In this document: positions 40,813-59,400 of the stretch, in pieces | How positions within the stretch are numbered: the first letter of the stretch is position 1 | Layout of the letters: each line of letters opens with the position of its first letter | Assembly: GCA_023150835.1 (NCBI GenBank) | Contig: JAKLKB010000066.1 | Span: 1-60,090, forward strand | Direction of reading: 5' to 3' | Source of the DNA: Myxococcota bacterium | Lineage (GTDB): Bacteria; Myxococcota_C; UBA6777 | DNA length: 60,090 nt | Program-made: the position numbers and the translations under genes | The notes under the pieces: model-generated | Databases searched by the model: none | Seen by the model: only the letters and a program-made list of their open reading frames with translations | Told to the model about the DNA's origin: nothing

Positions 40813-43215
40813 TTGAATCTTTCTTTTTTGCAGCTACACAAGCTCTGCACCTATCTTTTGGCCGCCGTGGGGTTTTTGGCGCTTTTGATCCCCCACATCC
40901 TCTCGCCGTTGATGTGGGGGGTCGTGGGGGTGGCCGTGATCGTGAGTTGGCGATTTGAGCCGCCTACGATCCAACATCCTTTTTATCGCCAAACATGGAC
41001 GCAGATCACGGTCGCTCTTTTCGTGGGCAGTTTGTTGTTGACGATGGTTCGGGTGTTTTCTGAGCCGATCGTTGTCGGTGCGTATTTGTTGAGCCTATTG
41101 CAGATCAACAAGCTGTTCAATCGCTCGGAGAGACGGGATTATCTGCATATCTACCTGATCAGCTTTTTGATGCTCACGCTCGGAAGCGTCCTGAACATCG
41201 AGCTTTCGTATGCGATACTCTTCCTGTTGTATGTGGTTTTTGCGACGTGGGCGCTGATGATGCTGCATCTACGGCGTGAATTGGAGGATACGCAGCTTAC
41301 ACGCCACGAAGAAGACTGGGGCGAAGGCGAACAAGTCGGTGTTGCGCAGATCTTGCAATCGCGCTCGTTGATTCGGGGATCTTTGCTTGCGTATACATCG
41401 GTGATGGCGCTGTTGGTCTTTTTGGGCAGCAGCGTGTTTTTTGTGGTCTTTCCGCGTGTGGGCTTTCGGCTGTTTTTTCAGCGAAATAATCCACCCCAAG
41501 CCATCGCAGGATTTTCGGATCGCGTGCGACTCGGTTCGTTTGGGACCATCCAACAAAACCGCAGCGTGGTCTTGCGTGTCGAAGTCTGGGGTGAGTCAGG
41601 GCAGCCGTTGAATCATTACTTTCGCGGCCTTGCGTTTGATTTGTATGATGGTCGTGAGTGGCGGCGTTCTCAGCCCAATGCTCAAAAACAGCTTGTGCAG
41701 TTTGCGGGTGCTTCGGTTGGAGCGTTGTCTTTTGCCTTGAGGCGCTTGTCCGACGAAGAGCGCGAACGCGTCGTCTACCAAGAGATCCACCAAGAGCCGC
41801 TTCCCGTGAATGTCCTCTTTGGCGTCGAGCGACCTTCACGCGTCACAATCCCGTTTTCTTTGCGCGAAGGTCTGCGCAATGCGCCCTCACTTTCGACCGA
41901 TCCCCACAACGACACGCTTTTCTTTTCCTACCCACCCAAAGAACAAAGTGGCTTTCGTTATTATGTCGAGTCTGTTCCGTCGGATTTCTGGCGGTTTCGG
42001 CGGCCCTTGAAACCTGATGCACGAAAGCGGATGTTGCAGCTTTTCACGCAGATGCCCCAAGGGGTTTTTTCGCCCCGCCTCAAAGTCCTCGCAGAACAGA
42101 TCACACGCGGCAAAACAACGGTGCCCGATCGTGCGAGAGCGATCGAAGCCTACCTCCGTAAGACCTACATTTACAGCCTGACCCGCCAACCCGCCCAAGA
42201 AAATCCGCTGGAAGATTTTCTGTTTCGTCAAAAGAGCGGTCATTGCGAGTATTTTTCGACTGCCATGATCATGTTGCTGCGCTCGATCGGTGTCCCTGCG
42301 CGCCAAGTGACGGGTTTTTTGGGGGCTGAGTGGAATCCTTACGGAAACTTCTACGCCGTCCGACAAAGCCATGCGCATTCGTGGGTCGAAGTGCTCGACA
42401 CACGGGCAGGCTGGTATCGCTTCGATCCCACGCCTTACCAAACCATCAACACCACGCAAGGCCGAGCATGGACGGCTTGGGCCGAAGATCGGTTTGATGC
42501 GTTGCGTTTGCAGTGGTACAAGTGGGTGATCGAGTACGATCTCGAAGCGCAGTTGGGCTTTTTGCGCCAGATCGCTGCAACGTTTCGCTCCGCACGCAGC
42601 GCTTGGAGCGGCGAGTCTTCGGGAGGTTCTTCGCTTCGAGATATCTGGCGTACGATCCAGCTTCCTGTGGGGCTGTTGCTTTTGCTCGGTGGACTCGGCT
42701 TTTTCTTTTGGCAAAGACGCTTCCGACGCACACGCACGCTGACCGCACAACAAGCCTTTTCGCGGGTTAGCACCATCTACCTCGCGCTTCTTGATGCCCT
42801 CGAAAAGCGCGGTGTCGCACGTCATCCTGCCGAAACGCAAAAAGCCTTCGCTTCGCGCCTTGTCGCTCTCGCCCAATCTTCCGCCCCTTTGGCTGCTTCT
42901 TCTGTTCTTGACAACAACAAAGATCTCCCAAACAACCCACCTTCCGACCTCTCCACTCCATCGACCGTTTCCCACGAAGAACTACCGACACGGGCCACTT
43001 CCGCCGATTCGACAAAACCATCCGTTCCTACCGACGCAACAAAACACCACGTAACATCCACCCCTTGGTTGGAACCTCCCGTCGCTGCGTTATTTTCAAC
43101 TCTGACAGATCACTACCTTACGTTGCGCTTTGGTCAAGGTGACGTACCCACCGCCGATATCGATGCCCTCGACCGCCAAGCCCAAGCCATCCTTCTACAG
43201 ATCATCCCTCCTTGA
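40813..43215 (+). CDS. Membrane transglutaminase-like protein (TgpA type: DUF3488 + transglutaminase + DUF4129)
   Basis: Multiple N-terminal TMs, FPR, GFSD.V.LG, catalytic GHCEYFSTA, HAHSWVEV, FDPTP. Confidence 0.92.
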   Translation: MNLSFLQLHKLCTYLLAAVGFLALLIPHILSPLMWGVVGVAVIVSWRFEPPTIQHPFYRQTWTQITVALFVGSLLLTMVRVFSEPIVVGAYLLSLLQINKLFNRSERRDYLHIYLISFLMLTLGSVLNIELSYAILFLLYVVFATWALMMLHLRRELEDTQLTRHEEDWGEGEQVGVAQILQSRSLIRGSLLAYTSVMALLVFLGSSVFFVVFPRVGFRLFFQRNNPPQAIAGFSDRVRLGSFGTIQQNRSVVLRVEVWGESGQPLNHYFRGLAFDLYDGREWRRSQPNAQKQLVQFAGASVGALSFALRRLSDEERERVVYQEIHQEPLPVNVLFGVERPSRVTIPFSLREGLRNAPSLSTDPHNDTLFFSYPPKEQSGFRYYVESVPSDFWRFRRPLKPDARKRMLQLFTQMPQGVFSPRLKVLAEQITRGKTTVPDRARAIEAYLRKTYIYSLTRQPAQENPLEDFLFRQKSGHCEYFSTAMIMLLRSIGVPARQVTGFLGAEWNPYGNFYAVRQSHAHSWVEVLDTRAGWYRFDPTPYQTINTTQGRAWTAWAEDRFDALRLQWYKWVIEYDLEAQLGFLRQIAATFRSARSAWSGESSGGSSLRDIWRTIQLPVGLLLLLGGLGFFFWQRRFRRTRTLTAQQAFSRVSTIYLALLDALEKRGVARHPAETQKAFASRLVALAQSSAPLAASSVLDNNKDLPNNPPSDLSTPSTVSHEELPTRATSADSTKPSVPTDATKHHVTSTPWLEPPVAALFSTLTDHYLTLRFGQGDVPTADIDALDRQAQAILLQIIPP

Positions 43216-43258
43216 TTCGCCCTCGTTTTTTCTTCTGTGAGTGTACGTGTGTTTGCCT

Positions 43259-43361
43259 GTTTTTGTGGGGCGCTGCCCCACGCCCCGCAAGGGACTCTCG
43301 CCCCTTGACCCCGTGTTGGCGGAGTGATCCGTCGTTTTTCAAACCAATAACGGTGCCGCTT
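43259..43361 (+). repeat. Repeat family B copy
   Basis: TTTTTGTGGGGCGCTGCCCCACGCCCCGCAAGGG...CCCTTGACCCCG...TTTTTCAAACCAA...CGGTGCCGCTT. Confidence 0.8.
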
Positions 43362-43587
43362 GGGGGAGAGGGTGAATACGCCTTTGTTTCAGCACAAGCC
43401 ACACCATTGTATCCTTTCGATCAGACACGCTTTGGGGGCCGCGAACGTGCCTTTCGAGTGTAAGAAACATCCTGCATACTTTAATCATTAAACGCTGTGT
43501 CGTTTTTCGAGGTACTTGACAAACTTTTCTGTCTTCTTTTCCATGATTCTTTCGTCAAGTCGGTAGGTCGAAGCGTGGGAGAGACTC

Positions 43588-44550
43588 GTGGCACGAAACG
43601 AACAGATGTTGAGGCAATGGCAGATCTTAGTCCGCCTTCAACAAGGCCGTGCTTCGCGTAAGGAATTCGCAAACGAATTTGGCTGCAGCTTCCGAACGAT
43701 TGCGAGGGACATCGATGCGCTGACACCCAATTTTCCGATCTTTGAAGAACAAGAAGGCAACGATATTTTCTACGCCTTTGAGCAGAACTATCGCCTGCCC
43801 GGGGTTTGGTTCACGCCCAAAGAATTGTCTGTTCTTTATCTTGCCCAAAAGTTAATCGCCCATGCAGCAAAAACGTCTTCTTTTTCTGAGGTTTTTAGTG
43901 GGCTATTGGCCAAAATCTCCCGAACACACTCCACCGCCGCGCTTCGCGCAAGCCAACGGCTCCCTCAAGTATACCAAAGCGACTTTTCTTCTCCTGATCC
44001 TCGATCTGATTACACGGAAGAGATCATCCGTGCAGCCCAAGAAGAACGTTGTATCGCCATGATGTATTTTTCTGCTTCCAAAGGAGAAGAAGCACAGCGC
44101 GTTGTGGAGCCGTTTGTTGTGCGTCTGACCATTCAAGGACTTCATCTCATCGCGTTCTGCCGCTTGCGCCAAGAATTTCGCACCTTTACGATCAACCGTA
44201 TTCGGGCGTTGTCTGTGTTGGAGGAAAGGTTCTCTCCAGAAGCACGACGATTCGACTTGCAACGTTACGTCGAAGAAAGCTTTGGTGGACTGCGGAGTGA
44301 ACCCGTGCAGAAAGTTCGATTTCATATCCGCTATCCTACGGCTCATTGGGCAAAAGACTTGTTTTATCATTCAACGCAGGTGATCCAAGAGGTCGAGGAT
44401 GGCATCTTGTTGACTTTTCAGGCGGGTGGGGAAGACGCGATCGTGCGCCGAGCGATCAGCTTGGGGGCGGACTGCGAAGTTCTGGAACCGCCTCTTCTAC
44501 GTCAGCAGGTTGTTGCTAAAGCGATGCAGATCTTGGAACGCTATAAATGA
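43588..44550 (+). CDS. HTH-WYL-WCX transcriptional regulator preceding the cas operon
   Basis: wHTH (FANEFGCSFRTIARDIDAL), WYL core (RVVEPF...LIAFCRLRQEFRTFTINRI), WCX tail (EVLEPPLLR). Confidence 0.92.
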   Translation: MARNEQMLRQWQILVRLQQGRASRKEFANEFGCSFRTIARDIDALTPNFPIFEEQEGNDIFYAFEQNYRLPGVWFTPKELSVLYLAQKLIAHAAKTSSFSEVFSGLLAKISRTHSTAALRASQRLPQVYQSDFSSPDPRSDYTEEIIRAAQEERCIAMMYFSASKGEEAQRVVEPFVVRLTIQGLHLIAFCRLRQEFRTFTINRIRALSVLEERFSPEARRFDLQRYVEESFGGLRSEPVQKVRFHIRYPTAHWAKDLFYHSTQVIQEVEDGILLTFQAGGEDAIVRRAISLGADCEVLEPPLLRQQVVAKAMQILERYK

Positions 44551-44711
44551 AAGAAAAATGATCATATTTTTCAAAGAACTAATCGCTTTGTAAAAATTTG
44601 AGCGAGAGGGCTGACCTCATCTGTCCAACCTCTGTGCTAAAGGTTTCTTGGCAAAGATCGTGTGGGACTAGATCGCAAAAACTCTTTAAAATAAGGAAGG
44701 AGGACGGTGTG

Positions 44712-45383
44712 GTGACAGGAGAAAAAAGCCAAAAAAGCATCGTGGAGATGGTTTGGTCTGCGCATGGAACCGAAATACCTGCCGATCACGGTTATCCTGT
44801 GTATGGGGCTGTCTCTCGTCATGTTCCTTGGGTTCACGAAAACAAGGAAGCGAGCATTCTGCCTCTTACGGGCCAGCCGATCGGAAACAGGCTGTTGAGC
44901 CTCTCGAAAGACGCTCGTTTTCGTGTGCGTGTGCCCTACGAAGGGGTCGCTGAGATGTACCGATTGTCAGGAAAGCGTCTGGACTTGAACGGCTACTCTG
45001 TTCGTTTGGGGGTTCCTGAACTCTCGCTTTTGCGGGCTTCTCGTTCTCTTTACAGCCGCCTTGTGGTCATTAAAGGCTACACGGAAGAAACCGCTTTTTT
45101 GGAGGCCATCCAACGGCAACTGACGGATATGGGGGTTCTTGAGGCGTCGCCAAGCATTCCGCTACGAACACCTTTCGACGTGGAAAGATTGCGGCAAAAA
45201 GGCTTCGAACCTTCGTTGACCTGCCGCCGAACGTTGCGCGTGAAAAACAAAGAGATCGTTGGTTTTGCTGTGCGTGTAGACAATCTTTCGGACGGCTCTT
45301 CCATACTCTTACAAGCCGCAGGGTTGGGCGGAAAGCGCCTTTTTGGTTGTGGTTGTTTTGTTCCGTTCGTGGAGGGGGCATGA
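44712..45383 (+). CDS. cas6: Type I-MYXAN Cas6 (Cmx6) crRNA endoribonuclease
   Basis: IPADHGY.VYGAVS, L.SRLVVIKG, Gly-rich loop GLGGKRLFGCG. RBS AGGAGG before GTG (44709 or 44712). Confidence 0.93.
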   Translation: MTGEKSQKSIVEMVWSAHGTEIPADHGYPVYGAVSRHVPWVHENKEASILPLTGQPIGNRLLSLSKDARFRVRVPYEGVAEMYRLSGKRLDLNGYSVRLGVPELSLLRASRSLYSRLVVIKGYTEETAFLEAIQRQLTDMGVLEASPSIPLRTPFDVERLRQKGFEPSLTCRRTLRVKNKEIVGFAVRVDNLSDGSSILLQAAGLGGKRLFGCGCFVPFVEGA

Positions 45384-47767
45384 GTCAGCGTTTTTCTTAT
45401 CCCCGCTTGCTTGCGAAGTCTTCGCTCACTCCAGATGTTCCCCATGAAAAAGAGACACTTGTGGGCCATACGCGTGATGTGGTTCTTTCCGCGAAAGCGA
45501 TCGCAGAAATCGTCGGAGAGAAGGCCGTTGTGGGACTTGGTCTGCCCAAACACTTCATCGAGAAGCTGTCGGAGGTTTTGCCTCTGAGCGCAGCGATCCA
45601 CGATCTCGGAAAGGCCAATCATCAATTTCAGCGGATGGTTCGGCAAAAACAAGGCGAGAGAAATCTTCAAGCCTTCCGCCACGAAAAAATTAGCGTCTAC
45701 TTGTTGGGCCGTTTTCCTTCTCTCTACGAATGGTTTTTTGAAGACAAAGAGCCGCTGTACCGGTACGCTGTCATATTTTCTGTTTTGGGACACCATCTTA
45801 AAACAGAAGACACAACCTTCCGAACCCGCGAAGGGACAGGGGATGATCGCGTCGATGTGCTTGTTGAACACCCAGATTTTCGCAGATGTCTCGAACTTTG
45901 CGCAAATGAATTGGGTTTGGGGAGTCTTCCGTCCTTTGGGGCTTCTGGTGCGACTTGCTCGATCGACCTTTTGGATGCAAAGCCCTTGAACGACGCAAGC
46001 AAGATCGCAAAAGAGTTCGAGAGTTGGTGGGGCGAAGAAGCCAACGAAGATCAACGTCTTTTTGTTGCTTTGTGTAAAGCTTTACTCATGGCTTCAGATG
46101 TTGCGGGGTCTATCTTGGGATTGCAGCGCAAAGAAGCTGGGGCGTGGGTTCATGAAGCGCTGTTGTACGTTTGTGAAGAGGGTATGTTAGGTGAAGCCGC
46201 CAAAAAGCGACTCGGTGGTTTTCCTGTTCGGCCTTTTCAAAAAACAATCGCAAGTTGCGCCGTTGAATCGGGTGATGTTGTTTTTGTTCGCGCTGGATGC
46301 GGGAGCGGTAAGACGGCAGGGGCCTATCTTTGGGCAGAGCGCCACGCCGTTGGACGGCAGCTCTTTTTTGCCTATCCCACCACGGGAACTGCGACTCAGG
46401 GATTTGCTGATTATGTCCTACCTTCCGACTTTAGCGATCTTGCGCTGCTCTCTCACGGGCGGCGTGAAGTCGATCTAGAGGCTTTATACGACACAAATGA
46501 TCGCGATCTTGGAGATCGCGATGACCTCCACCGCGTCGAAGCCTTGGAGGTTTGGTATCATCCTTGGATCGTTTGCACGGTCGATCAAGTCCTTGGCCTC
46601 GTGCAAAACCAACGACGCCCTCTCTACGCAAGCCCTGCTTTGATGCGTGGCGCGTTCGTGTTTGATGAGATCCATCTTTACGATCAACGCCTATTTGGCG
46701 CGCTTCTACGTTTCTTAGAGGCTTTCCGTGGAGCGCCGATCTTGTTGATGACTGCCTCCCTTTCTGCCCATCGCCTCGGCAGCATACGCGATCTATTGCA
46801 AAAGCAAGGACGGCACCTCCATCAGATCGAGGGGCCAAAAGAGCGCGAGGAACTCGCACGCTATACCATCGGGCCGATTGTTTTAAAGGAGCCGTGGGAG
46901 CAAGTGGAACAAGCGATCCTCAGTGGCCAAAAAGTGTTGTGGGTTTCAAACACAGTGAGCCGATGCACCGAGATCGCAAAAGAAGCAGCCAAAAAGTTTC
47001 CACCTGAGATCGTTTTGCCCTACCACAGCCGATATCGCTATGTGGATCGTGTTGAACGTCACCAGCGCGTCATCGAGGCTTTCAAGAAAGAAGGGCCTGT
47101 CTTGGCCTGCACCACGCAAGTTTGTGAGGTTTCTTTGGACATCTCCGCCGATCTGTTGATCTCAGATATCGCGCCTGCTTCGGCGCTGATCCAACGGATG
47201 GGCCGATTAAATCGCCGCTCTGAGCCAGAGCGCCCGTTGGGAACAAGGCACGCCGTCTTTGTCGAAGTCGAGAAAACGTTGCCTTACGATGCGGAAGAAC
47301 TAGACCACGCACGTCGCTGGATACAGGAGCTTCTCAAGAAGGGGGGAGAGATCTCGCAGGATGATCTGCGCCGCGCCTTCGAGAGTTGCGAACTCCCGTC
47401 CGAGTTCGTTGCGCAGGTACAGTCCGAGTGGCTCGATCATGGGGGGCGTGCGCAACGTGCGCCTCTTCGCGAGGCAGGCCATACGATCTCCATCTTGCGC
47501 GAAGAAGACTTTTTGCAGCACGTGCAAAACAAAAAAGGCAAGGAAAAAACGAAAGCGATCATTGCTCACACGATACCGATGCCTTTTTGGGAGATCGTCG
47601 AGGAATACCGCACGTGGCCGCGAGAAGGCTCAGCGTTGATCTCGCCAAAAGATCGGGTGGACTACGATAACCAATGGGGTGCAACATGGCAAAAGCAAGA
47701 GCAAAGCAAAAAGCAGAACAAGCCCACAAAAAAGCAGAGCAAGCCTGCGAGATCACCCTCCAATTGA
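45380..47767 (+). CDS. cas3: Cas3 HD nuclease-helicase
   Basis: LVGHT, HDLGKAN, GHH, AGCGSGKT, FDEIH, MTAS, YHSR, QRMGRLNR. ATGA overlap with cas6. Confidence 0.97.
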   Translation: MSQRFSYPRLLAKSSLTPDVPHEKETLVGHTRDVVLSAKAIAEIVGEKAVVGLGLPKHFIEKLSEVLPLSAAIHDLGKANHQFQRMVRQKQGERNLQAFRHEKISVYLLGRFPSLYEWFFEDKEPLYRYAVIFSVLGHHLKTEDTTFRTREGTGDDRVDVLVEHPDFRRCLELCANELGLGSLPSFGASGATCSIDLLDAKPLNDASKIAKEFESWWGEEANEDQRLFVALCKALLMASDVAGSILGLQRKEAGAWVHEALLYVCEEGMLGEAAKKRLGGFPVRPFQKTIASCAVESGDVVFVRAGCGSGKTAGAYLWAERHAVGRQLFFAYPTTGTATQGFADYVLPSDFSDLALLSHGRREVDLEALYDTNDRDLGDRDDLHRVEALEVWYHPWIVCTVDQVLGLVQNQRRPLYASPALMRGAFVFDEIHLYDQRLFGALLRFLEAFRGAPILLMTASLSAHRLGSIRDLLQKQGRHLHQIEGPKEREELARYTIGPIVLKEPWEQVEQAILSGQKVLWVSNTVSRCTEIAKEAAKKFPPEIVLPYHSRYRYVDRVERHQRVIEAFKKEGPVLACTTQVCEVSLDISADLLISDIAPASALIQRMGRLNRRSEPERPLGTRHAVFVEVEKTLPYDAEELDHARRWIQELLKKGGEISQDDLRRAFESCELPSEFVAQVQSEWLDHGGRAQRAPLREAGHTISILREEDFLQHVQNKKGKEKTKAIIAHTIPMPFWEIVEEYRTWPREGSALISPKDRVDYDNQWGATWQKQEQSKKQNKPTKKQSKPARSPSN

Positions 47768-49317
47768 GTGACCCCGGCATGACGAGCTATCACAAATTGG
47801 GCCTCGGCGGGTTGTACCTCACGCTGTGTGCTTTCGAGAAAAATCCCCGATTGATCGAGTCTTTCGGTGATAAAGGCTGGTCTTGGAAACGGTCGCCTAC
47901 TGCGGTTTGCTTTCGTTTGGAAAAAGAACCCAACCTCTTTTTTCAACAATTGGTTTCTGAGTCATTCAAGTTGCGGGATGGCCTGTTTGCTTTTCCAGCG
48001 TTAGGCGATCCGATGCAATCTCCCGAATATGCCGCTTGTTTGCACGAAGGGATCTTGCAAACCATTCTACAACACGGACTCACCCGAGAGGCAGAACCCC
48101 CAAAAAAAGGCACAGGGCATTTGGTCTTCGAGTACGAGGACGGTTATGAAACGATCCACTACCGAAAAGTTAAATCATACGTCCATCAGCGAGCGGTGAT
48201 CGATGTTTCGACGCCTTTTTCTGTGGCTGGATGGGGGTTCCCGGGTGGAGCTGTGCGGCACACCGCGTTTACCAAAGACACAGAACTCCGCGAGCCTCTT
48301 GAAAGGGCTTTGTGCCTTCTCTTTGCGATCGTTGGGGCGCTTTATTTTCGTTTGCGCGGTCGAGGGGCAGGGGTTCGCGCCAATTACGCTTTGGTGATCC
48401 CCGAAATAACGAACCTTGAGCAATACCGGTCCATGCGCTCGCAGTTTGGTCGATTTGGCGCAGAGCGATTTTTGGTGGCGGGGCGAGCCGAAGCGGGTTT
48501 ACAAGTCCTTTTGGAGCTGGACGCGCAGGGCCTTCTTCAAGAATTTCATGGTGCGGTCTGTCGTGTTGTTCTTTTGTCCACACTGCCGTGGTCAAAGCAG
48601 CAAAAAACACGCGCTGATGTGTTGGCGTTGGGGAAGATTCCTGAGCAATGTTTGCGGGTATATCGGCTTTGTAAGCAAGGCTTTCGCTCTCGCCTTGTTC
48701 GTCATCCCGAAACAGGAGAGACTTTTTGGAGCGTTCCGCAAAGCCCCGCGCTGATCGCAGAAAATCTTTCCAAAGGAAAATTATCTTGGTGGGACGGCTT
48801 TGCAGATTTTTCTTCGGATAAGGAAAGAGCAAAAGCCATTTTTTCTAAAGAACAAGGAGGTTTGTATCGGATGGTGACAAACGAACAAGCGATGCCAAAA
48901 GACAGCCCGCAAACAATCTTTGTTGCGGCTTGTCATGAAGCATGGAAACGGCGTCTCGGAAAGATCGGCGAAAGAGCAAGAAGCGCCAACTTGGATTTTT
49001 CGCGTCAGGTTTCAAAAGAATTTGAGAAGCTACGGGTCACGTTTTCGCGTGCAAAAAACGCAGCGACGTTGCGAGCGGCGATCACGGATTTTTGGGTGCG
49101 TGGTGGCACAGGTCTTGGGCCGCTTCAGGGCGACGGTTGGCGCAAGATCCTGCCCCTCTTGGATGACTGGAGCCAAGCGCGAGATCTCGTGCTGTTGGCC
49201 CTCGCAAGCTATCAACCCACAACCAAAGAGGAAGCTGTGGCTCTCGCAATGACTGATCCGCAAGCGAGTGATGCACCCGAAATGGATTCGCAAGAAAGCG
49301 AAACATCCGAAGAATAG
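47686..49317 (+). CDS. cas8: Type I-MYXAN large subunit Cas8 (Cas8a1/Cmx1)
   Basis: PGMT..H..GL.GL..TL, GW..PG..VRH, L.LLFA.VG, W.KQQKTR, DL.LLALASY; position between cas3 and cas7. Confidence 0.9.
   Translation: MAKARAKQKAEQAHKKAEQACEITLQLSDPGMTSYHKLGLGGLYLTLCAFEKNPRLIESFGDKGWSWKRSPTAVCFRLEKEPNLFFQQLVSESFKLRDGLFAFPALGDPMQSPEYAACLHEGILQTILQHGLTREAEPPKKGTGHLVFEYEDGYETIHYRKVKSYVHQRAVIDVSTPFSVAGWGFPGGAVRHTAFTKDTELREPLERALCLLFAIVGALYFRLRGRGAGVRANYALVIPEITNLEQYRSMRSQFGRFGAERFLVAGRAEAGLQVLLELDAQGLLQEFHGAVCRVVLLSTLPWSKQQKTRADVLALGKIPEQCLRVYRLCKQGFRSRLVRHPETGETFWSVPQSPALIAENLSKGKLSWWDGFADFSSDKERAKAIFSKEQGGLYRMVTNEQAMPKDSPQTIFVAACHEAWKRRLGKIGERARSANLDFSRQVSKEFEKLRVTFSRAKNAATLRAAITDFWVRGGTGLGPLQGDGWRKILPLLDDWSQARDLVLLALASYQPTTKEEAVALAMTDPQASDAPEMDSQESETSEE
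48871..49317 (+). CDS. cas11: Predicted Cas11 small subunit translated from an internal in-frame start in cas8
   Basis: AAGGAGG at 48854-48860 inside cas8, in-frame ATG at 48871, 148-aa helical product. Confidence 0.7.
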   Translation: MVTNEQAMPKDSPQTIFVAACHEAWKRRLGKIGERARSANLDFSRQVSKEFEKLRVTFSRAKNAATLRAAITDFWVRGGTGLGPLQGDGWRKILPLLDDWSQARDLVLLALASYQPTTKEEAVALAMTDPQASDAPEMDSQESETSEE

Positions 49318-49325
49318 GAGAAAAC

Positions 49326-50285
49326 ATGACGAAACATCTCTACGGGCTGATCTCCACATCGTTTGGAGTTGCAGCAAACAATCGCGGCGAAAACGAAGGG
49401 CACATCTCTACGCTACAAAAGATCTTGTGGCATCGCGACGACGTTCACACAACAGTTTCTGCGGAAGCTATTCGTTTTGCCGTACGCGATATATGCCAAA
49501 AAAAAGGCTTGGTGCTGAACCGAACGTGGTTCGAACACCAGAACCAGTGGGCTGATCCGAAGTTTGAGCAAGCGGGAACATTTTGGGACGATGACGTCTT
49601 GGGCTTCATGTCCGCAGAAGCTGCAAAGCAAGACGGCGGGGAGGCTGATGTAGCCGAAAAGCCGAAGCCACAAGCCTCTACAGGCAAACCAAAAAACAAA
49701 AAAGCAAAACCTCGGGGAACCACCTTGGTGCGGCGTTCTCGTTTGGAGATCTCACGAGCTGTTTCCTTGTCTCCTTTTCGTGGGGAAGTTAGCTTTAACT
49801 CCGCCAGCATCGGTGCTACACCATCCGCCAGCAGCACAGGGAAAGATCCCGTTCCTTACGGAACAGAAATCCATGCGACGCGGTATCAATACGCGTTTGC
49901 CCTCACCCCAGAAGAACTCGCCAAAAAAGAACGCGCTTTGGATGTTGTGGACATCTTGATGCAATTGTCCCATGTTGCAGGAAATCAATCACGCTTTCTG
50001 TACGACTTCTCCCCCGACTCCGTGATCTTCCGATGGACCGACGATTTTGCACCGCGAATGCTTTATGCTTTTGAACAGCCCGAGGGTACCGAGCTTTGCG
50101 TCCCTTCCATCCTACAGCGCGTTCAATGCGGCGATATCGAACCAAAAGAATTGGTGATCGGTGGCGCGATCGCATCCGCTCCAGACGGCCACATTTTGCA
50201 AAAGGCGGGCGCAACCGTTGTTCTTGGGGTTCGGCAAGCTGCAAACGAGATCATCGCACGCATCAAAAAAGATCTCGGTCTGTGA
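49326..50285 (+). CDS. cas7: Cas7 (Cst2/DevR) backbone subunit
   Basis: AANNRGENEG...LQK, VSAEAIRFA.R, DDDVLGFM, E.HATRYQY, VAGNQSRFLYDFSP. Confidence 0.95.
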   Translation: MTKHLYGLISTSFGVAANNRGENEGHISTLQKILWHRDDVHTTVSAEAIRFAVRDICQKKGLVLNRTWFEHQNQWADPKFEQAGTFWDDDVLGFMSAEAAKQDGGEADVAEKPKPQASTGKPKNKKAKPRGTTLVRRSRLEISRAVSLSPFRGEVSFNSASIGATPSASSTGKDPVPYGTEIHATRYQYAFALTPEELAKKERALDVVDILMQLSHVAGNQSRFLYDFSPDSVIFRWTDDFAPRMLYAFEQPEGTELCVPSILQRVQCGDIEPKELVIGGAIASAPDGHILQKAGATVVLGVRQAANEIIARIKKDLGL

Positions 50286-50307
50286 GCCGTTTGGTCAGGA
50301 GATAGCC

Positions 50308-50970
50308 GTGAGTTCTTCTTTTCTTTCTCTGTTTGTTTCCGTCCCGATCGCGTCTTTTCGTGTTGCACAGGCTCGCGAGTATTGGGAAACCTATCCCTGC
50401 CCGCCGCCTTCCACGGTGTACGGTATGTTGCTCTCTCTCGTTGGAGAAGAAGATCGTTTTGCCCATCAAGGCGCTGAGATCGCCACCGCGTTGCTCTTGC
50501 CCGAACCATCGCTCTCTCGGATTCTTCGAAAAACATGGCGCGTCAAGAAACTTGATGAGGGCCTTGGTCGGGGAAACAACGTGCGCCCCGATTTTCAAGA
50601 GCTGTTGACGGGGGTTCGCTTGGGGGTGTTTCTGCGATCAGGCCCAAACGAAAGCACGCAACATCCGACTCTTTACGAACGTGTGCAATCGACCTTGGCT
50701 GCGCCCTCACAGATTCGACGGTTTGGTGGCTTGAGTCTTGGCGAAAGTACTCATCTCGTCGACGAACTCCGACTTTTACGCTCCAACGACGCACAGCAAG
50801 GAGCGTTGTGGCTATCCCCCTCGAATATCGGCTCTTTTAGTTTACCGATCTGGCCAAATCACGTCGGCTTGGAAGGAACTCGTTGGCAACAGTTCCGCTT
50901 GGAAGAAGCGCAAAAGAACCAACCCCTCGATCCAAGCCATGTTTGGGTCACGATCCGATCTGCTGAGTGA
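50308..50970 (+). CDS. cas5: Cas5 (Cmx5/DevS)
   Basis: VPIASFR...AREY.ETYP.PPPSTVYGMLLSLVG, RPDFQELL, RFGGLSLGESTHLVD. RBS AGGAG before GTG. Confidence 0.95.
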   Translation: MSSSFLSLFVSVPIASFRVAQAREYWETYPCPPPSTVYGMLLSLVGEEDRFAHQGAEIATALLLPEPSLSRILRKTWRVKKLDEGLGRGNNVRPDFQELLTGVRLGVFLRSGPNESTQHPTLYERVQSTLAAPSQIRRFGGLSLGESTHLVDELRLLRSNDAQQGALWLSPSNIGSFSLPIWPNHVGLEGTRWQQFRLEEAQKNQPLDPSHVWVTIRSAE

Positions 50971-51002
50971 AACTTCGATCTTTGAAAACAGAATCGATGT
51001 CT

Positions 51003-51131
51003 CTTTCGACTTCTCAGATGCCGCAAGGCGTTCATTTCAGGAGAACACACCAGAGCGCTACACAACACACAGCGCGAGTTCTCCGCGTCTGATCCCCACT
51101 ATTCTCTCGGATGCCGTAAGGCGTTCATCGA
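51003..51131 (+). CRISPR. Degenerate two-repeat mini-array (crRNA-like element) between cas5 and cas4-cas1
   Basis: 51003-51038 matches the array repeat at 24/36; 51096-51131 at 29/36 with 25 contiguous identities. Both keep the TGCC-GNAA-GGCG hairpin. Confidence 0.85.
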
Positions 51132-51137
51132 AACGAT

Positions 51138-51178
51138 CGCGGCGCACTTTTTTGTTTGTGCGCTTGTGGCGTTTTTTT
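51138..51178 (+). terminator. Predicted intrinsic terminator after the mini-array, before cas4-cas1
   Basis: GCGCAC (51142-47) / GTGCGC (51158-63) stem, extendable, then T7 at 51172-51178. Confidence 0.55.
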
Positions 51179-51195
51179 GACGTTGGAGGCTTGGT

Positions 51196-52854
51196 ATGGA
51201 AGAGGATCTGAAATCCCCAGAAGAAGGGCTTTTGCGCGTGATGGCACTACACGCGTTGGTTTACTGCGAACGGTTGTTTTTCCTCGAAGAAGTAGAAGAG
51301 TTGCGCGTAGCAGATTCCGCCGTTTTTGCTGGTCGTACTCTTCACGAAGAACTGCGTCGTACAGAAGAAGAAGACGGCGAGTGGACGAGCCTTTCCCTCT
51401 CTAGCGAGTCGCTTGGACTCGTTGGAAAAATGGATGCTGTTCGCAAACGAGATGGCCAGTGGATCCCTTACGAGCACAAAAAAGGGCGGTCTATGCGCGG
51501 CGATCGAAAACCACAGGCTTGGCCGTCAGATGCTTTGCAGGTGGCTGCGTACGCGATGCTTTTGGAAGAGCATTACGGTTGTGTTATCGAAGAAGGGCGC
51601 ATTCGTTATCATGCCGAGAAGATCACCGTGCGCGTTTTGATCGACTCGTCTTTGCGTGAGGCTGTGCGAAGTACTGTGTTGAGGGCGCGAGCGCTGCGTG
51701 CTTCTTTGGAAAGGCCGCCCATCACGACCGAAGAGAACCGTTGCTTGCGTTGTTCCCTCGCCCCTGTTTGCTTGCCAGAAGAAGAACGGCATCAATCCGA
51801 TCCTACATGGGCAACTGTTCGCTTGTTCCCACCCCACCAAGAAAGAAAAACACTTCACATCGTTTCTTATCAAGCGCAGATCGGGAGGGCTGGTGATACG
51901 TTGAAGATTCGGCAAGAAGGCGAAGAACAAACGTACCCCATCCATGAAGTCGGAACCTTGGTTCTTTATGGCACACCTCAAATCACCACACAGGCTTTGC
52001 ATTCGTGTTTGGCGCATGATATCGCTGTCCATTGGGTGACACGAGCAGGGCGCTATCTTGGAGGAATTTCTGCGGGGGTTGGAGCTGTGCAGCGCAAATT
52101 ACGCCACTACGAGGCTTTTGCCGACGCCTCGCGACGGCTTGGGCTTTGCCGACGGTTGATATCCGCAAAGATCGAAAATTCTTTACGGTTCTTGTTGCGC
52201 GCCACACGCGGCGAGCAAGACCGTCGCGCCTCTGTGGAAGATTTCATCTCTGAAATGCGTCGATCTCTCAAAAGTGTCACGCACGCCGAAGACGAAAATG
52301 CAATCCGTGGTTTTGAGGGGAATGCTGCACGAGCCTACTTTGCAGCCTTGCCTTTTTTGATTAGTTCGGAGGTCGATCGGTCCATGCTCCCAAAGGGGCG
52401 ATCAAAACGCCCTCCAAAAGACCGTTTCAATGCGTTGCTCAGTTTTGGTTACGCTTTGGTTTACCAACGCGTTTTGCAGGCGATCTTGGTTGTTGGTTTG
52501 GAGCCTGCGCTCGGCTTCTTCCACACACCACGCTCGGCAGCGCACCCGTTGGCTCTGGATCTGATGGAGCTATTTCGTTGTGTCTTGTGGGATATGCCTC
52601 TTGTGGCTTCTGTGAACCGACGCACTTGGGGACCTGATGAAGACTTTTCTATTGTTGGTGAGCAGGTCTGGCTTTCGGAGCACGGAAGGAAAAAGGCTAT
52701 CCAGATCTTTGAACGGCGATTGGAAGAAACTTGGAACCACCCCGCAGTGGATTATTCGCTCTCTTATGCGCGCATGGTTGAATTAGAAGTTCGCTTGCTT
52801 GAAAAGGAATGGACTGGATCTCCGGGGCTTTTTGCACAATTTCGGATCCGTTAG
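51196..52854 (+). CDS. cas1: Cas4-Cas1 fusion
   Basis: Cas4 part: YCERLF, G..LH, GKMD, EHKKG, QVAAY, CLRCSLAPVC. Cas1 part: RGFEGNAARAYF, RPPKDRFNALLSFGY, GFFH, LALDLMELFR. Confidence 0.97.
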   Translation: MEEDLKSPEEGLLRVMALHALVYCERLFFLEEVEELRVADSAVFAGRTLHEELRRTEEEDGEWTSLSLSSESLGLVGKMDAVRKRDGQWIPYEHKKGRSMRGDRKPQAWPSDALQVAAYAMLLEEHYGCVIEEGRIRYHAEKITVRVLIDSSLREAVRSTVLRARALRASLERPPITTEENRCLRCSLAPVCLPEEERHQSDPTWATVRLFPPHQERKTLHIVSYQAQIGRAGDTLKIRQEGEEQTYPIHEVGTLVLYGTPQITTQALHSCLAHDIAVHWVTRAGRYLGGISAGVGAVQRKLRHYEAFADASRRLGLCRRLISAKIENSLRFLLRATRGEQDRRASVEDFISEMRRSLKSVTHAEDENAIRGFEGNAARAYFAALPFLISSEVDRSMLPKGRSKRPPKDRFNALLSFGYALVYQRVLQAILVVGLEPALGFFHTPRSAAHPLALDLMELFRCVLWDMPLVASVNRRTWGPDEDFSIVGEQVWLSEHGRKKAIQIFERRLEETWNHPAVDYSLSYARMVELEVRLLEKEWTGSPGLFAQFRIR

Positions 52855-52863
52855 GAGGTCGCG

Positions 52864-53157
52864 GTGGGTTCAGAGAAACGGTGGTATCTGTTCGCATACG
52901 ACGTACGCGAACCCAAACGGTTAAAGAGCGTTTCCAAGATATTGGAAGGATATGGAATACGTGTTCAGTACAGCCTTTTTCGATGCCGCTTGACGCCTCG
53001 CGAATTGGAGCGTTTGCGGTGGGAACTCTCTCGCGTCATGCTTTCAGAGGACGCTTTGATGGTGGTTGGACTCTGCTCGCAGTGCGCTGATCGTGTTCAT
53101 ACAACAGGATGCTCGCACGCGTGGGACAGCGAGTTTTCCACGTTTGAGATCGTTTGA
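52864..53157 (+). CDS. cas2: Cas2
   Basis: YLFAYDVREPKRL..V.K.L.GYG.RVQYSLF.C.L. Confidence 0.96.
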   Translation: MGSEKRWYLFAYDVREPKRLKSVSKILEGYGIRVQYSLFRCRLTPRELERLRWELSRVMLSEDALMVVGLCSQCADRVHTTGCSHAWDSEFSTFEIV

Positions 53158-53445
53158 GCGGGCGGATAGCGCGCCTCGGAAAGTGTGAAGCAAAAATTCA
53201 AGCAACCGAACCCGTTTTGCTTGCCTTGAGGTGTTCTTGTTGCTTTCGCTTGTTTTCTTGGGGGGTTTGGCGGAAGAGGCGTTGATTTTGATGCTTGACT
53301 GTTGTGTTTCTCTTGGTATCTCAGACCTTTAACAAGGTGAGCCCTGTGCTTTCAGCCCAAAACCTTGTGGCCTTTTGGCTATCTGAAAAGGTTCTTGATT
53401 TCTAGGTTGGAATTCGTATATAAAAGCAAGGCTTAAAGGGAGGCC
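53158..53445 (+). promoter_or_regulatory. CRISPR leader
   Basis: Non-coding stretch between cas2 and repeat 1, AT-richer near the array. Possible TTGACT-16-TATCTC promoter near 53295-53322. Confidence 0.75.
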
Positions 53446-56400
53446 CTGCCATTCTCTCGGATGCCGTAAGGCGTTGAGCACTTTTGAGTTAAAATCAATT
53501 AGGTTCTCCCATTCTTCCTGCCATTCTCTCGGATGCCGTAAGGCGTTGAGCACTCCGTGCTGTCCAGCGCCCTCGACCGCGCTATATCCTGCCATTCTCT
53601 CGGATGCCGTAAGGCGTTGAGCACGTTCCGATCTCGATCATCGCGAAGCCTCCGTGCTGTCTGCCATTCTCTCGGATGCCGTAAGGCGTTGAGCACAATC
53701 ATCCGATTGCATCGCATCCATCGCATCCACCCTGCCATTCTCTCGGATGCCGTAAGGCGTTGAGCACGACTGGTGCGACGATGAGCCACGATCTGCCGAG
53801 ATCTGCCATTCTCTCGGATGCCGTAAGGCGTTGAGCACAAGTAGAGGATGAACCTGCGCCCCCTGCACCGTCCCTGCCATTCTCTCGGATGCCGTAAGGC
53901 GTTGAGCACCTTAACCCCAACGGGCAGGAGCTTCAAGATTGGGCCTGCCATTCTCTCGGATGCCGTAAGGCGTTGAGCACATGAAGCTCGATTTGACGAG
54001 CGTCACCGCGCTTCCGCCTGCCATTCTCTCGGATGCCGTAAGGCGTTGAGCACCGTAAGAACTTTTCCTTCTGCGCCCACCTTCACGGTGCTGCCATTCT
54101 CTCGGATGCCGTAAGGCGTTGAGCACACCTCGCTGGCGACGTGATGCTCTATCACGTTGGCGGTCTGCCATTCTCTCGGATGCCGTAAGGCGTTGAGCAC
54201 CGGTCAAGCGCGGTTGCAAGGCTCATTTCAAGAACCTGCCATTCTCTCGGATGCCGTAAGGCGTTGAGCACTCGATCTGGAGTTCGTCGCCCACATTCAT
54301 TTGGATCTGCCATTCTCTCGGATGCCGTAAGGCGTTGAGCACTCTTTCTGTGGTGCAGACGTTCGCGCTAGAGCAAACCTGCCATTCTCTCGGATGCCGT
54401 AAGGCGTTGAGCACCGGCACGTTTTTTGTTCTTGTGCGGGTTGGCGCACTGCCATTCTCTCGGATGCCGTAAGGCGTTGAGCACGAATCAGCGTGGCCTT
54501 CACCTACAAGCCTGTCGTGAGCCTGCCATTCTCTCGGATGCCGTAAGGCGTTGAGCACCAGGATCTGCCCATCGAAGAGCGCGTCAAAGTCGTGCGTCTG
54601 CCATTCTCTCGGATGCCGTAAGGCGTTGAGCACAGGAGTGTTTGGTAGCCCGCCGCCATCTGCCCCTGCACCTGCCATTCTCTCGGATGCCGTAAGGCGT
54701 TGAGCACGGAGGAAATGCTTCAAAACACCCAAGTTGATCCCGCGCTGCCATTCTCTCGGATGCCGTAAGGCGTTGAGCACCAAGCGCTAATGCGTGGATC
54801 GAAAAGCAATACATAATCTGCCATTCTCTCGGATGCCGTAAGGCGTTGAGCACATGTACAAGATGCCCTTTCCGCCCTTGCATCTAGTCCTGCCATTCTC
54901 TCGGATGCCGTAAGGCGTTGAGCACCGAGGATCGACGCGACAAGTGCGCTGTTTGTGCCGAGCTGCCATTCTCTCGGATGCCGTAAGGCGTTGAGCACCG
55001 ATCAAGTAGATCGTTTTCGGTGCGATCCATCACCTGCCATTCTCTCGGATGCCGTAAGGCGTTGAGCACGTGGAAATCTTCCTACAATCCCTTGGATGGA
55101 TAACCTGCCATTCTCTCGGATGCCGTAAGGCGTTGAGCACTTCCACCAAACCCCTGCGCTTTGGCCGAGGTTTAGGTGTCTGCCATTCTCTCGGATGCCG
55201 TAAGGCGTTGAGCACCGTACCAAGCGCGGAACATCTCGGACATCGCCGATCCTGCCATTCTCTCGGATGCCGTAAGGCGTTGAGCACATCAAAAATCGGG
55301 TCAATGGGATCTTTAAGTACCCCGTCTGCCATTCTCTCGGATGCCGTAAGGCGTTGAGCACCTGATCCCACACCACTTGAGGCCCGCCCGTCGTTTTCTG
55401 CCATTCTCTCGGATGCCGTAAGGCGTTGAGCACTTATCGTCGAAAGACTCTTGAAAGGACTTGATCATTCTGCCATTCTCTCGGATGCCGTAAGGCGTTG
55501 AGCACAGAGAGATAAGAGCGAAGAAGAGACAGACGACACAGACTGCCATTCTCTCGGATGCCGTAAGGCGTTGAGCACCTATCTAGTTGCTCTTTGTTGG
55601 CTCTTGCGTACTTTTCCTGCCATTCTCTCGGATGCCGTAAGGCGTTGAGCACCTCTTTAAGGAAGCCGAGTTGATTGCGCAATCGTTCCTGCCATTCTCT
55701 CGGATGCCGTAAGGCGTTGAGCACGATATCGAGCAGATCGTGCGAAAGTTTGGGCGCGGCGAAGGTTCTGCCATTCTCTCGGATGCCGTAAGGCGTTGAG
55801 CACCCGAATTCTTTTTGCTGTAGATATGCGCGCAGGAGCTGCCATTCTCTCGGATGCCGTAAGGCGTTGAGCACCCGTGGGCAAGATGTGGCTGATCTCG
55901 GCGGTGGCCTGCCATTCTCTCGGATGCCGTAAGGCGTTGAGCACGGGTATTTCTCTAACAGTTTCGTCCACCATTCTTGCGGCTGCCATTCTCTCGGATG
56001 CCGTAAGGCGTTGAGCACCGTTGAGATTCCCCCGTGTAGGAAAAAGCCCATTCCTGCCATTCTCTCGGATGCCGTAAGGCGTTGAGCACGGTCGATCACT
56101 TTATCATCCGAATCGACCAGCCAAATTCTGCCATTCTCTCGGATGCCGTAAGGCGTTGAGCACAGCAAAAAACAGTCGGCCTTGCCTTTAGACGATAACT
56201 GCCATTCTCTCGGATGCCGTAAGGCGTTGAGCACAAGAAGCAAGTGAATATGATTCGGATGTGACTGATTTGCTGCCATTCTCTCGGATGCCGTAAGGCG
56301 TTGAGCACCACGAGCAGCGGCTAGTGCATATCTGGGCGGGGAGACTGCCATTCTCTCGGATGCCGTAAGGCGTTGAGCACACAAAGGATCACAAACGCAA

Positions 56401-59400
56401 TACTAACCTCAAAAGAGACCGTCCTAATCTGCCATTCTCTCGGATGCCGTAAGGCGTTGAGCACGAAGAGATCCGCGAAGTCTTGCGCGCTCTTGATCCT
56501 GCCATTCTCTCGGATGCCGTAAGGCGTTGAGCACGACGCGGGCAAGCGACAAAGCGCCCCTCCTCAAACCCTGCCATTCTCTCGGATGCCGTAAGGCGTT
56601 GAGCACTCTCGGCGGTGCTTCGACCAGTTCGGACGGTTCAATCTGCCATTCTCTCGGATGCCGTAAGGCGTTGAGCACTTGAGGGCTTTGGGATCGCATG
56701 GAATTAAGGAAGGACTGCCATTCTCTCGGATGCCGTAAGGCGTTGAGCACTGGACTTTTCAACGAACACTTATTCGCCTGTTGCGGGACTGCCATTCTCT
56801 CGGATGCCGTAAGGCGTTGAGCACCCACCCAACACTCCCAAGTCTCCCCCCCGTGGGGCGCTGCCATTCTCTCGGATGCCGTAAGGCGTTGAGCACAAGA
56901 GAGGGAAAAGAAAAAAACAAAGCGCGATCCCACTGCCATTCTCTCGGATGCCGTAAGGCGTTGAGCACGGGGCGCGGTTGTTTTCTGCGCCCTCTTTGCC
57001 GCGCCTGCCATTCTCTCGGATGCCGTAAGGCGTTGAGCACTACCCTCCCACTTCTACGCAGCGATCCGCTGCGTCAAAGTCTGCCATTCTCTCGGATGCC
57101 GTAAGGCGTTGAGCACGCAAGCAAATCTTGTGTAAGTTCGGCTTGAGGACTGACTGCCATTCTCTCGGATGCCGTAAGGCGTTGAGCACAGCCTGCCTTG
57201 CCTGCAAAAAGGCATGCGGAAGTGTTCTGCCATTCTCTCGGATGCCGTAAGGCGTTGAGCACACGCAAATCACCTCGATAGCAAAAGCCCCCTACGCGGC
57301 TGCCATTCTCTCGGATGCCGTAAGGCGTTGAGCACATCTCTATCATCCGAATCTATGCTATTCCTTAGACCTGCCATTCTCTCGGATGCCGTAAGGCGTT
57401 GAGCACATGGTGGATATGGCGGCTCGTATGCCGGGTCAAGTGGGTCTGCCATTCTCTCGGATGCCGTAAGGCGTTGAGCACAGAATGGAGCACCGATATT
57501 GCCCAGAAAGCTATCCTGCCATTCTCTCGGATGCCGTAAGGCGTTGAGCACCCGGTAAAATCTCGCATGCTTGGCAGACTGGGAACCTGCCATTCTCTCG
57601 GATGCCGTAAGGCGTTGAGCACTACCAAGAAAAGTCTGCGTAAGCGCTAGGTGAGGATCTGCCATTCTCTCGGATGCCGTAAGGCGTTGAGCACTCCGCG
57701 TTGGGGCGCGTGGACAGGTGCAATTGGTCCTGCCATTCTCTCGGATGCCGTAAGGCGTTGAGCACTATTTTGGTTGTTTGGGCTGTCTTTTTGCGGTCAT
57801 CCTGCCATTCTCTCGGATGCCGTAAGGCGTTGAGCACCTATGCGCTACCGATATGTTGTAGGCACGGTGCATCCTGCCATTCTCTCGGATGCCGTAAGGC
57901 GTTGAGCACAAACTCCCCCAACAACGCTTGAGCTTTTGACTGATCTGCCATTCTCTCGGATGCCGTAAGGCGTTGAGCACTTTGTATCACCCACCGAGGC
58001 GAGGTGACAGACATTTCTGCCATTCTCTCGGATGCCGTAAGGCGTTGAGCACACGATTCGCCACTGCCCATCGAGGCGATCCCGAACAAGCTGCCATTCT
58101 CTCGGATGCCGTAAGGCGTTGAGCACTACTGGTGGAATTGGGTACATTTGAACATGATCGGCCCCTGCCATTCTCTCGGATGCCGTAAGGCGTTGAGCAC
58201 ACACAGGTCGCGGCAGAGTGCTTTCGCGTGTTGCCTGCCATTCTCTCGGATGCCGTAAGGCGTTGAGCACCTCAAGAGTAGCGCTAAGGACAGCACAGCG
58301 AAACCTGCCATTCTCTCGGATGCCGTAAGGCGTTGAGCACTACCAAGAAAAGTCTGCGTAAGCAAAGTCTGCGTAAGCCTGCCATTCTCTCGGATGCCGT
58401 AAGGCGTTGAGCACTAAGCAAAGGGCTACAAGGCAAGCTGATCCCGCGTGTCTGCCATTCTCTCGGATGCCGTAAGGCGTTGAGCACGGGCTGGATCTGT
58501 GGGATGCCTTCTCTTCGCGGGCTGCCATTCTCTCGGATGCCGTAAGGCGTTGAGCACAAGGCGCGTTTGTTTGTTCCCTTCTCCATTGTTTCAACCTGCC
58601 ATTCTCTCGGATGCCGTAAGGCGTTGAGCACGATAATTTCGCCGCGTTCTGCTTGCTTTGTTCGTCGTCTGCCATTCTCTCGGATGCCGTAAGGCGTTGA
58701 GCACCTCCAGCTCTGTGTAGTCAAAAGGGTTGGCGTACCTGCCATTCTCTCGGATGCCGTAAGGCGTTGAGCACCTCGGTGCGTGGTACAATATGCCCCT
58801 TTTTTCCCTCGCTGCCATTCTCTCGGATGCCGTAAGGCGTTGAGCACACGGTGTTCCCCAAATTCCCGTACATTCTGGGGAGAGTCTGCCATTCTCTCGG
58901 ATGCCGTAAGGCGTTGAGCACGGATACCCGAAGCGGTGATCGTTGTCGAAGTGATCCTGCCATTCTCTCGGATGCCGTAAGGCGTTGAGCACTAAATCCC
59001 TTCGTCTTGAAAGGCGATCTCCAACACCTGCCATTCTCTCGGATGCCGTAAGGCGTTGAGCACGAGAAGTCTTTCTAGCCCTACTCTGGAGCGTCGCCTG
59101 CCATTCTCTCGGATGCCGTAAGGCGTTGAGCACTCGGACGGGCGGGCTTTTACAACAACACGCAATTTGCTGCCATTCTCTCGGATGCCGTAAGGCGTTG
59201 AGCACAGCACAGCACGGGCGGCGATCTAGAAAAACTTGTTTTGCTGCAAAACTGCCATTCTCTCGGATGCCGTAAGGCGTTGAGCACGATAATTTCGCCG
59301 CGTTCTGCTTGCTTTGTTCGTCGTGCTGCCATTCTCTCGGATGCCGTAAGGCGTTGAGCACAATCGTCATGCTCCCAAGGTTTTCAGGATAGGCGTCCTG

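Follow-up and report, generated by a model that had tools for sequence, protein, structure and literature searches.

The window, that is, the whole stretch of 60,090 nucleotides that was analysed, carries on its + strand a complete type I-MYXAN CRISPR-Cas locus, as identified from NCBIfam profiles together with the list of open reading frames. The gene content is that of I-MYXAN: cas6/cmx6, cas3, cas8a1/cmx1, cas7/devR, cas5/devS, a fused cas4-cas1 and cas2, followed by a CRISPR array. MYXAN-specific NCBIfam models scored above their cut-offs for Cas6, Cas8a1 (both the N-terminal and the C-terminal model), Cas5 and Cas1, and generic models did so for Cas3, Cas7 and Cas2. The genes and the array are located as follows.

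44598-45383, + strand: cas6/cmx6, the presumed repeat-cutting endoribonuclease of the locus (NCBIfam TIGR02807, 179.5 bits, cut-off 98.85)
45347-47767, + strand: cas3 (generic model, above cut-off)
47674-49317, + strand: cas8a1/cmx1 (MYXAN-specific NCBIfam N- and C-terminal models)
49326-50285, + strand: cas7/devR (generic model, above cut-off)
50161-50970, + strand: cas5/cmx5/devS, last gene of the interference module, start codon uncertain, stop codon at 50968-50970 (TIGR02586, 148.6 bits, cut-off 111.5; ORF list)
51196-52854, + strand: cas4-cas1 fusion, first gene of the adaptation module (NCBIfam TIGR03983, 480.9 bits, cut-off 358)
52864-53157, + strand: cas2 (generic model, above cut-off)
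53446-59576, + strand: main CRISPR array of 85 repeats, each 36 nt long and all identical, oriented like the cas genes and like the two repeat copies (psiR1 and psiR2) described below

The 84 spacers of the main array are 34-48 nt long, most commonly 35-36 nt; four of them are unusually long (40, 43, 46 and 48 nt). No convincing self-match was found when the 84 spacers were compared with the organism's own genome. Spacers 72 (58632-58668) and 81 (59288-59325) returned identical lists of short genome matches and are probably one spacer present twice, i.e., a duplication within the array. Directly upstream of cas6, positions 43588-44550 (+) encode a 320-aa HTH-WYL-WCX protein (Pfam WYL 49.9 bits, WCX 51 bits), which is likely a protein regulator of the cas operon. 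Shortly before the CRISPR-Cas locus, positions 40813-43215 (+) encode an 800-aa transglutaminase-like protein of the TgpA family (TgpA_N, Transglut_core and DUF4129). Tandem repeats lie far upstream of the locus, at 36591-36826 (33 nt, 7.2 copies, 96% matches) and at 1240-1364 (42 nt, 3 copies, 97%).

Within the operon, the 225-bp gap between cas5 and cas4-cas1 is the sole sizeable intergenic stretch; the other cas genes overlap or nearly abut. The gap sequence is present in a single copy in the organism's own genome (7.56 Mb). An ORF that runs across the gap (50738-51211) had no Pfam match and was taken as spurious. An Rfam scan of positions 44000-54000 at an E-value threshold gave only weak matches, to CRISPR-DR (CRISPR-DR33) on the + strand of the array, and none within the gap. 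The original prediction had described two degenerate relatives of the array repeat in this gap, with a folded sequence between them and a terminator behind them, and all of these features were found in place by direct reading of the sequence.

51003-51038, + strand: psiR1, degenerate repeat, 24/36 identical to the array repeat, 6-bp hairpin of -7.7 kcal/mol
51039-51095, + strand: psiS, the 57 nt between the repeats, with an internal hairpin at 51040-51084
51096-51131, + strand: psiR2, degenerate repeat, 29/36 identical to the array repeat, -10.5 kcal/mol, z -2.7
51130-51178, + strand: terminator-like stem-loop, GCGCAC/GTGCGC core with extended stem, T7 at 51172-51178 (pattern scan, own scan and fold)
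51185-51189, + strand: GGAGG ribosome-binding site of cas4-cas1, read from the sequence

In psiR1 the hairpin core (51017-51032) is intact except for one loop base, and the last 8 nt, TTCATTTC, match the corresponding TTGAGCAC of the array repeat at 4/8 positions. psiR2 equals the array repeat exactly at positions 6-30, ends in TTCATCGA (also 4/8) and carries a G-to-C change that gives a stem of 7 bp. The two copies are alike at 23/36 positions and are spaced 93 nt apart, as compared to an array period of 70-75 nt. With no more than one mismatch, the 16-nt core GATGCCGNAAGGCGTT occurs 87 times in the window, 85 times in the array and twice in the gap, where shuffled sequence would give an expected 0.03 occurrences. 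The psiS hairpin consists of a 7-bp stem (GGAGAAC at 51040-51046 with GTTCTCC at 51078-51084) and a 5-bp stem (GCGCT at 51055-51059 with AGCGC at 51071-51075) with an ACACAACACAC loop. For the 57-mer a fold of -15.2 kcal/mol is predicted (z -2.6; 2/200 shuffles as good), and the fold of the whole gap likewise has a z of -2.6 (1/200 shuffles as good). The stem-loop at the 3' end of the gap is predicted by the scans and the fold to have the form of an intrinsic terminator, a G+C-rich stem-loop followed by a U-tract on the transcribed strand, and the end of its T-run is 18 nt upstream of the cas4-cas1 start codon (ATG, 51196). A bona fide array has at least three regularly spaced, near-identical repeats and a leader, and the gap holds only two copies.

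A related strain, X7 (DNA run), is diverged by about 1.8% (46 differences in 2544 nt, summed over the listed pieces); for the gap, a 1-nt deletion at 51172 and a G>A change at 51182 are listed, both in or just after the T-run, and two differences carry no statistical power. Contigs from the metatranscriptome (RNA) runs of two studies (X11 and X18, both of low depth) cover parts of cas7, cas5, cas4-cas1 and cas2, and none spans 50851-51555. The X11 and X18 contigs stop within 7 nt of each other (50815-50822) in the 3' part of cas5, where a DNA contig runs on; contigs of RNA runs cannot show RNA ends, and these stops are at most a weak hint of one.

The differences between the gap copies and the array repeat are not evenly spread. 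Only 1 of the 12 mismatches in psiR1 falls in the 16-nt core (P = 0.002 under uniform decay), and it is located at a loop position that varies freely among the repeats of the family; none of the 7 mismatches in psiR2 falls in the core (P = 0.009). Outside the core, the flanks retain residual homology to the array repeat (9/20 positions in psiR1 and 13/20 in psiR2). Residual homology in the flanks together with intact hairpins suggests that both copies were once whole repeats, whose ends decayed and whose hairpin did not. As judged from sequence, the pattern therefore looks like differential decay rather than partial copying. That mismatches avoid the hairpin core is in line with the original proposal that psiR1 and psiR2 are repeat-derived and probably Cas6 substrates.

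The part that was lost is the one that defines a guide. The last 8 nt of the repeat form the 5' handle of the crRNA, which is bound by Cas5, according to the available part of PMC9458426. When 52 array repeats taken from related loci were aligned, GATGCCGNAAGGCGTTGAGCAC proved nearly invariant, with each handle position at least 90% conserved. A PWM was built from these 52 repeats, and on it the handle of psiR1 scored -10, where the maximum is 13.5. Both gap copies have TTCAT where the array repeat has TTGAG, a coincidence that had been taken as a sign of selection. This claim was not supported, as it concerns two shared changes only and TTCAT was found in a CRISPR setting at just 1 of the 29 places recovered from the genome collection by an exact scan for the core followed by TTCAT; TTCAT was thus rejected as a special or selected handle. 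The one CRISPR-linked place, in L183, is where an array located upstream of cas6 ends. In related loci, ordinary arrays also have terminal repeats that are degenerate at the 3' end, with the hairpin and the 5' part kept.

The PWM was then applied to related loci, with a hairpin-segment score of at least 12 bits, a score that shuffled DNA reaches 0.003 times per kb and strand. The scan covered 160 loci, of which 142 were distinct and 131 had enough upstream sequence. A repeat hairpin on the sense strand no more than 250 nt upstream of cas4-cas1 was found in 39 of the 131 loci, as compared to 1 on the antisense strand, by a hairpin-based detection that is biased towards elements in which the hairpin has been kept. 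The handle was lost in the copy nearest to cas4-cas1 in 33 of these 39 loci; the number of copies was one in 33 loci and two in 6. Non-array matches of at least 14 bits (null rate 0.0016 per kb per strand) comprised 59 in sense non-coding sequence, 3 in sense coding sequence and 1 on the antisense strand.

The state of the junction differs considerably among these loci. Full arrays are located between cas5 and cas4-cas1 in L041, L059 and L070, and arrays lie directly upstream of cas4-cas1 in L051, L056 and L072. The junctions of L165 and L174 hold mini-arrays of three repeats. Mini-arrays of two repeats, the first of which has its handle intact, were found in L043 and in L109, one of the closest relatives, where the spacer is 41 nt long. 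Other loci have a single handle-less hairpin (many loci) or nothing. Among cases with two copies within about 100 nt, that of the window alone has lost the first handle as well. The original prediction that such an element was unknown in MYXAN-type systems thus has to be narrowed: mini-arrays do occur in the same gap of related loci, and it is this exact form that none of them has. With regard to close relatives of the locus, the best Cas4-Cas1 identity was 60% among genome contigs and 61% among metagenome contigs, and none of the 60 related genomes searched gave a match. In the genome set, L001-L017 rank closest by Cas4-Cas1 identity, and they have no such hairpin in the gap; the nearest locus with something in the gap is L109, with its classical mini-array and intact handle. 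In L174, a metagenomic I-MYXAN locus, the first mini-array spacer (2302-2337) matches the coding sequence of the locus's own cas1 (3848-3883) at 30/36 positions in the same sense, as compared to 18-23/36 for the other 76 such "spacers" tested, and could act as a regulatory guide directed at the locus's own adaptation gene.

Hairpins of the same type are not confined to the cas4-cas1 junction. Several loci carry sense-strand hairpins without a handle ahead of cas7, at a distance of 56-106 nt; in those loci where cas8 was seen, they lie between cas8 and cas7. Given as locus and position, these hairpins are as follows.

L031, 2274
L038, 2268
L039, 2277
L065, 2294
L070, 520
L080, 98
L123, 620
L174, 642

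Some loci, e.g., L031, L038, L039, L065 and L174, have hairpins upstream of both cas7 and cas4-cas1, and the presence of hairpins in two separate gaps of one operon is poorly explained by a single collapsed array.

A related arrangement is found in 14 cyanobacterial loci (L023, L041, L042, L050, L055, L066, L072, L073, L076, L077, L144, L165, L169 and L180; the 60 nt before the cas4-cas1 start were compared). These loci have a solitary hairpin with a diagnostic change of its own, ATGTCG in place of ATGCCG, and an inverted copy of the hairpin, ACCTTACAGACAT, located 1-12 nt before the start codon. Median pairwise identity among the 14 loci is 0.85 for the hairpin and 0.85 for the inverted copy, 0.33 for the linker between them, which varies in length, and 0.49 for the third codon positions of cas4-cas1; the Cas4-Cas1 proteins have a median identity of 82%. 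Since the hairpin has its own C-to-T change, gene conversion from the array does not explain its conservation. When a stem between hairpin and anti-hairpin was drawn, 88% of its cells were paired, as compared to 27-49% when it was slid. There were 0 pairs with compensatory changes in this stem, and RNAalifold on the 5' UTRs predicted a 3-bp stem only and not the long one. Conservation of the hairpin and of its inverted copy is thus evident at the level of DNA sequence, which does not in itself establish an RNA structure.

Sequence comparison demonstrates the anatomy of the gap, the non-uniform decay of its repeats and the recurrence of handle-less hairpins at the same junction. As a tentative reading, which we prefer while regarding it as somewhat short of probable, the gap repeats would be cis-acting Cas6 recognition sites on the cas transcript and would, together with the terminator, separate expression of the adaptation genes from that of Cascade. 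Under this reading the element would be a two-repeat mini-array reduced to the part recognised by Cas6, i.e., the hairpin with its immediate 5' bases, with the 8-nt Cascade-guide tag gone. Cas6 (Cmx6) would bind, and probably cut at, the 3' base of each hairpin; two cuts would release a folded piece of about 93 nt and would leave the mRNA of the Cascade genes with a structured 3' end capped by Cas6. The cas4-cas1-cas2 message would begin downstream, behind the intrinsic terminator, and would be expressed only through read-through, so that the adaptation genes would be expressed separately from, and probably at a lower level than, the interference genes. Cas6 binding and cutting, terminator activity and the effect on cas4-cas1 expression are inferred. 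The sequence features of the gap fit the proposed class of cis-acting Cas6 processing sites on mRNA: both copies are in sense orientation, are located between cistrons and conserve the hairpin with its 5' flank in the absence of guide features. One of the roles originally proposed, a putative mRNA-processing switch that would uncouple Cascade from adaptation, is favoured by the junction hairpins of the 39 loci and their lost handles.

A broader form of this idea, which at present appears rather unlikely, would be that handle-less hairpins at the interference/adaptation junction of I-MYXAN loci are Cas6-operated riboregulators that tune cas4-cas1-cas2 to the Cas6/crRNA load, the window being a two-hairpin form coupled to a terminator. 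Free Cas6 would then bind or cut the cas transcript at the hairpins, and in the cyanobacterial form Cas6 would compete with anti-repeat pairing beside the start codon. If true, these elements would represent a protein-responsive RNA switch made of CRISPR repeats that has no guide function.

The main rival to cis-acting Cas6 sites is a non-functional relic, i.e., a small internal array or a CreR-like mini-array in decay, with the folded 57-mer and the terminator as unrelated local features. This explanation is improbable on balance, though by no means negligible. The junctions of related loci form a full series from arrays through mini-arrays to single repeats, and the degenerate 3' ends of terminal repeats in normal arrays of the family mean that a collapsed array would leave behind a repeat without its handle. 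Ectopic repeats are gained and lost dynamically, and some mini-arrays are regarded as degraded, in the text available of Shmakov et al. (PMC10120712). The distribution is patchy, with absence from most of the nearest relatives; terminator-like elements are not a general feature of this gap (4/53 loci, as compared to 2 in the coding control and 1 in the antisense control); and a search by hairpin depends on the hairpin being kept. Neutral decay should, however, hit the core too, and mismatches avoid both cores where the flanks have decayed. A relic also fits poorly with the homologous solitary hairpin that is conserved far above silent sites in the 14-locus cyanobacterial clade, and with the occurrence of hairpins in two separate gaps of some operons.

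The original prediction also offered trans-acting roles. If the element were a guide of the CreR/CreA type, Cas6 would free an RNA of about 93 nt that is loaded into Cascade and represses a promoter by partial complementarity. The element has the corresponding architecture of two repeat-like sequences flanking a spacer-like sequence between cas genes, its psiR1 has diverged further than its psiR2, which is also reported of CreA (PMC9458426, part of the text), L109 has a classical mini-array in the same gap, and the L174 mini-array spacer resembles its own cas1. The psiS length of 57 nt lies inside the range of 20-60 bp given for mini-arrays in the portion of PMC10120712 at hand; it is at the same time outside the 34-48 nt of this array, and about 45 nt of it would be locked in the hairpin. 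In psiR1 the handle, TTCATTTC as compared to TTGAGCAC, agrees at 4/8 positions, so that the conservation expected of a Cas5-binding site is lacking at a part of the repeat that is conserved in the family. A partial, seed-first match to a cas or toxin promoter beside a PAM, as is typical of these guides, was likewise not found above chance in the cas locus or in the genome, in searches run without a PAM filter. A scan with the psiS seed across 40000-53500 on both strands (13.5 kb) gave a best match of 10/12, found three times (49316 +, 43258 - and 50319 -) where about one was expected, and the match at 49316-49326 (10/11) that had been put forward with reservations is at chance level, as was suspected. 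A blastn-short search of the 7.56-Mb genome gave matches of 13-17 nt only, as by chance. A "split psiR1", in which 20 nt (51033-51052) are removed and an TTGAGCGC handle is followed by a 37-nt spacer, was tried and rejected: the handle-like AGAGCGC scored 0.1 bits (P ~0.07 over six positions), and the 37-nt spacer had 18 genome matches of at least 16/20, as compared to 2-36 for shuffled spacers. Moreover, the HTH-WYL-WCX gene upstream of cas6 offers a protein route for regulation of the cas genes. The guide-RNA reading is thus not supported, and we regard it as distinctly improbable. More improbable still is a structured small RNA that acts in trans without guiding. It might buffer the pool of free Cas6 as a decoy or sponge, or serve as an RNA toxin or antitoxin. 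A short, stably folded RNA that carries two intact Cas6 hairpins and is followed by a terminator would suit a decoy, and solitary repeat units of phages are known as RNA anti-CRISPRs (PMC10651486, in the part available). The element is, however, located inside the host's own cas operon rather than on a mobile element, the pattern scan of the gap revealed no promoter-like site, and two more Cas6 sites would be dwarfed by the 85 of the main array. A toxin of the CreT design has a strong Shine-Dalgarno sequence, a start codon and a mini-ORF with rare codons (PMC8501985, partial text); in the gap, the Shine-Dalgarno-like AGGAG (51039-51043) is followed by no ATG, GTG or TTG, which excludes a toxin of this design.

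When ectopic repeats turn up in cas loci, the usual interpretation today is that of a CreR/CreA-type regulatory guide. The window and the 39 of 131 related loci present another pattern, in which the Cas6-binding half of the repeat is kept and the guide-defining half is lost, at the boundary between the genes for Cascade and those for acquisition. If these copies are sites for Cas6 processing or binding, they would constitute a simple natural way to separate the expression of adaptation from that of interference and to couple it to the availability of Cas6, which bears on the question of how adaptation stays low yet inducible. For annotation, the pattern suggests caution: handle and target should be checked before such elements are called small arrays or guide RNAs.

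Literature searches turned up no account of repeat-like elements where cas5 meets cas4-cas1 in I-MYXAN loci, and none of Cas6 sites that occur naturally in cas mRNAs. In the available text of Shmakov et al. 2023, "MYXAN", "cas4" and "cyanobacteri" have 0 occurrences, and its supplementary tables may list such loci under subtype I-B. The available text of the CreR preprint (10.1101/2023.03.10.532045) has 0 occurrences of "MYXAN" and "cyanobacteri" and mentions cas4 twice, once with adaptation genes in general and once for upregulation in a Haloarcula mutant, neither time in connection with junction repeats.

The gap element belongs to the known class of ectopic CRISPR repeats. Within this class, CreR and CreA are degenerated mini-arrays in type I-B, I-E, I-F and V-A loci, in which psiR1 keeps the 8-nt handle bound by Cas5 and the spacer matches a promoter beside a PAM (PMC9458426; PMC10120712; 10.1101/2023.03.10.532045; each in the parts available). 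Like these, the gap has two degenerate repeats, oriented as in the array, on either side of a spacer-like sequence, the first repeat being the more diverged overall; unlike these, its handles are at 4/8, it has no above-chance target, its spacer is long (57 nt) and mostly paired, and it is located at the cas5/cas4-cas1 junction and not beside cas8, cas6 or cas3. With the standalone repeats surveyed by Shmakov et al. 2023, where the text available reports an excess of copies, many of them partly degraded, the element shares its position as an ectopic intergenic copy in a type I locus. The single repeat units described there are nearly identical to the array repeat, whereas the copies in the gap lack the handle. 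A degenerate terminal repeat of an array resembles the gap copies in that it retains the hairpin and the 5' part and has a diverged 3' end. Unlike a terminal repeat, the gap copies are not preceded by an array, are located inside an operon, 65 nt before a start codon, and are two in number at a distance of 93 nt instead of 70-75 nt. The Racrs of phages, as far as the accessible account of them goes, are also repeat-hairpin RNAs thought to engage Cas6 without guiding, but they are viral and inhibit the system of the host, whereas the gap element belongs to the cas operon of the host itself. Engineered Cas6/Csy4 cleavage sites are used to insulate genes in synthetic operons, where a hairpin between cistrons separates the mRNAs. 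The mechanism proposed here for the gap would be the same as that of these engineered sites, which are a synthetic device, and would in this case operate between the interference and adaptation genes of a natural cas operon.
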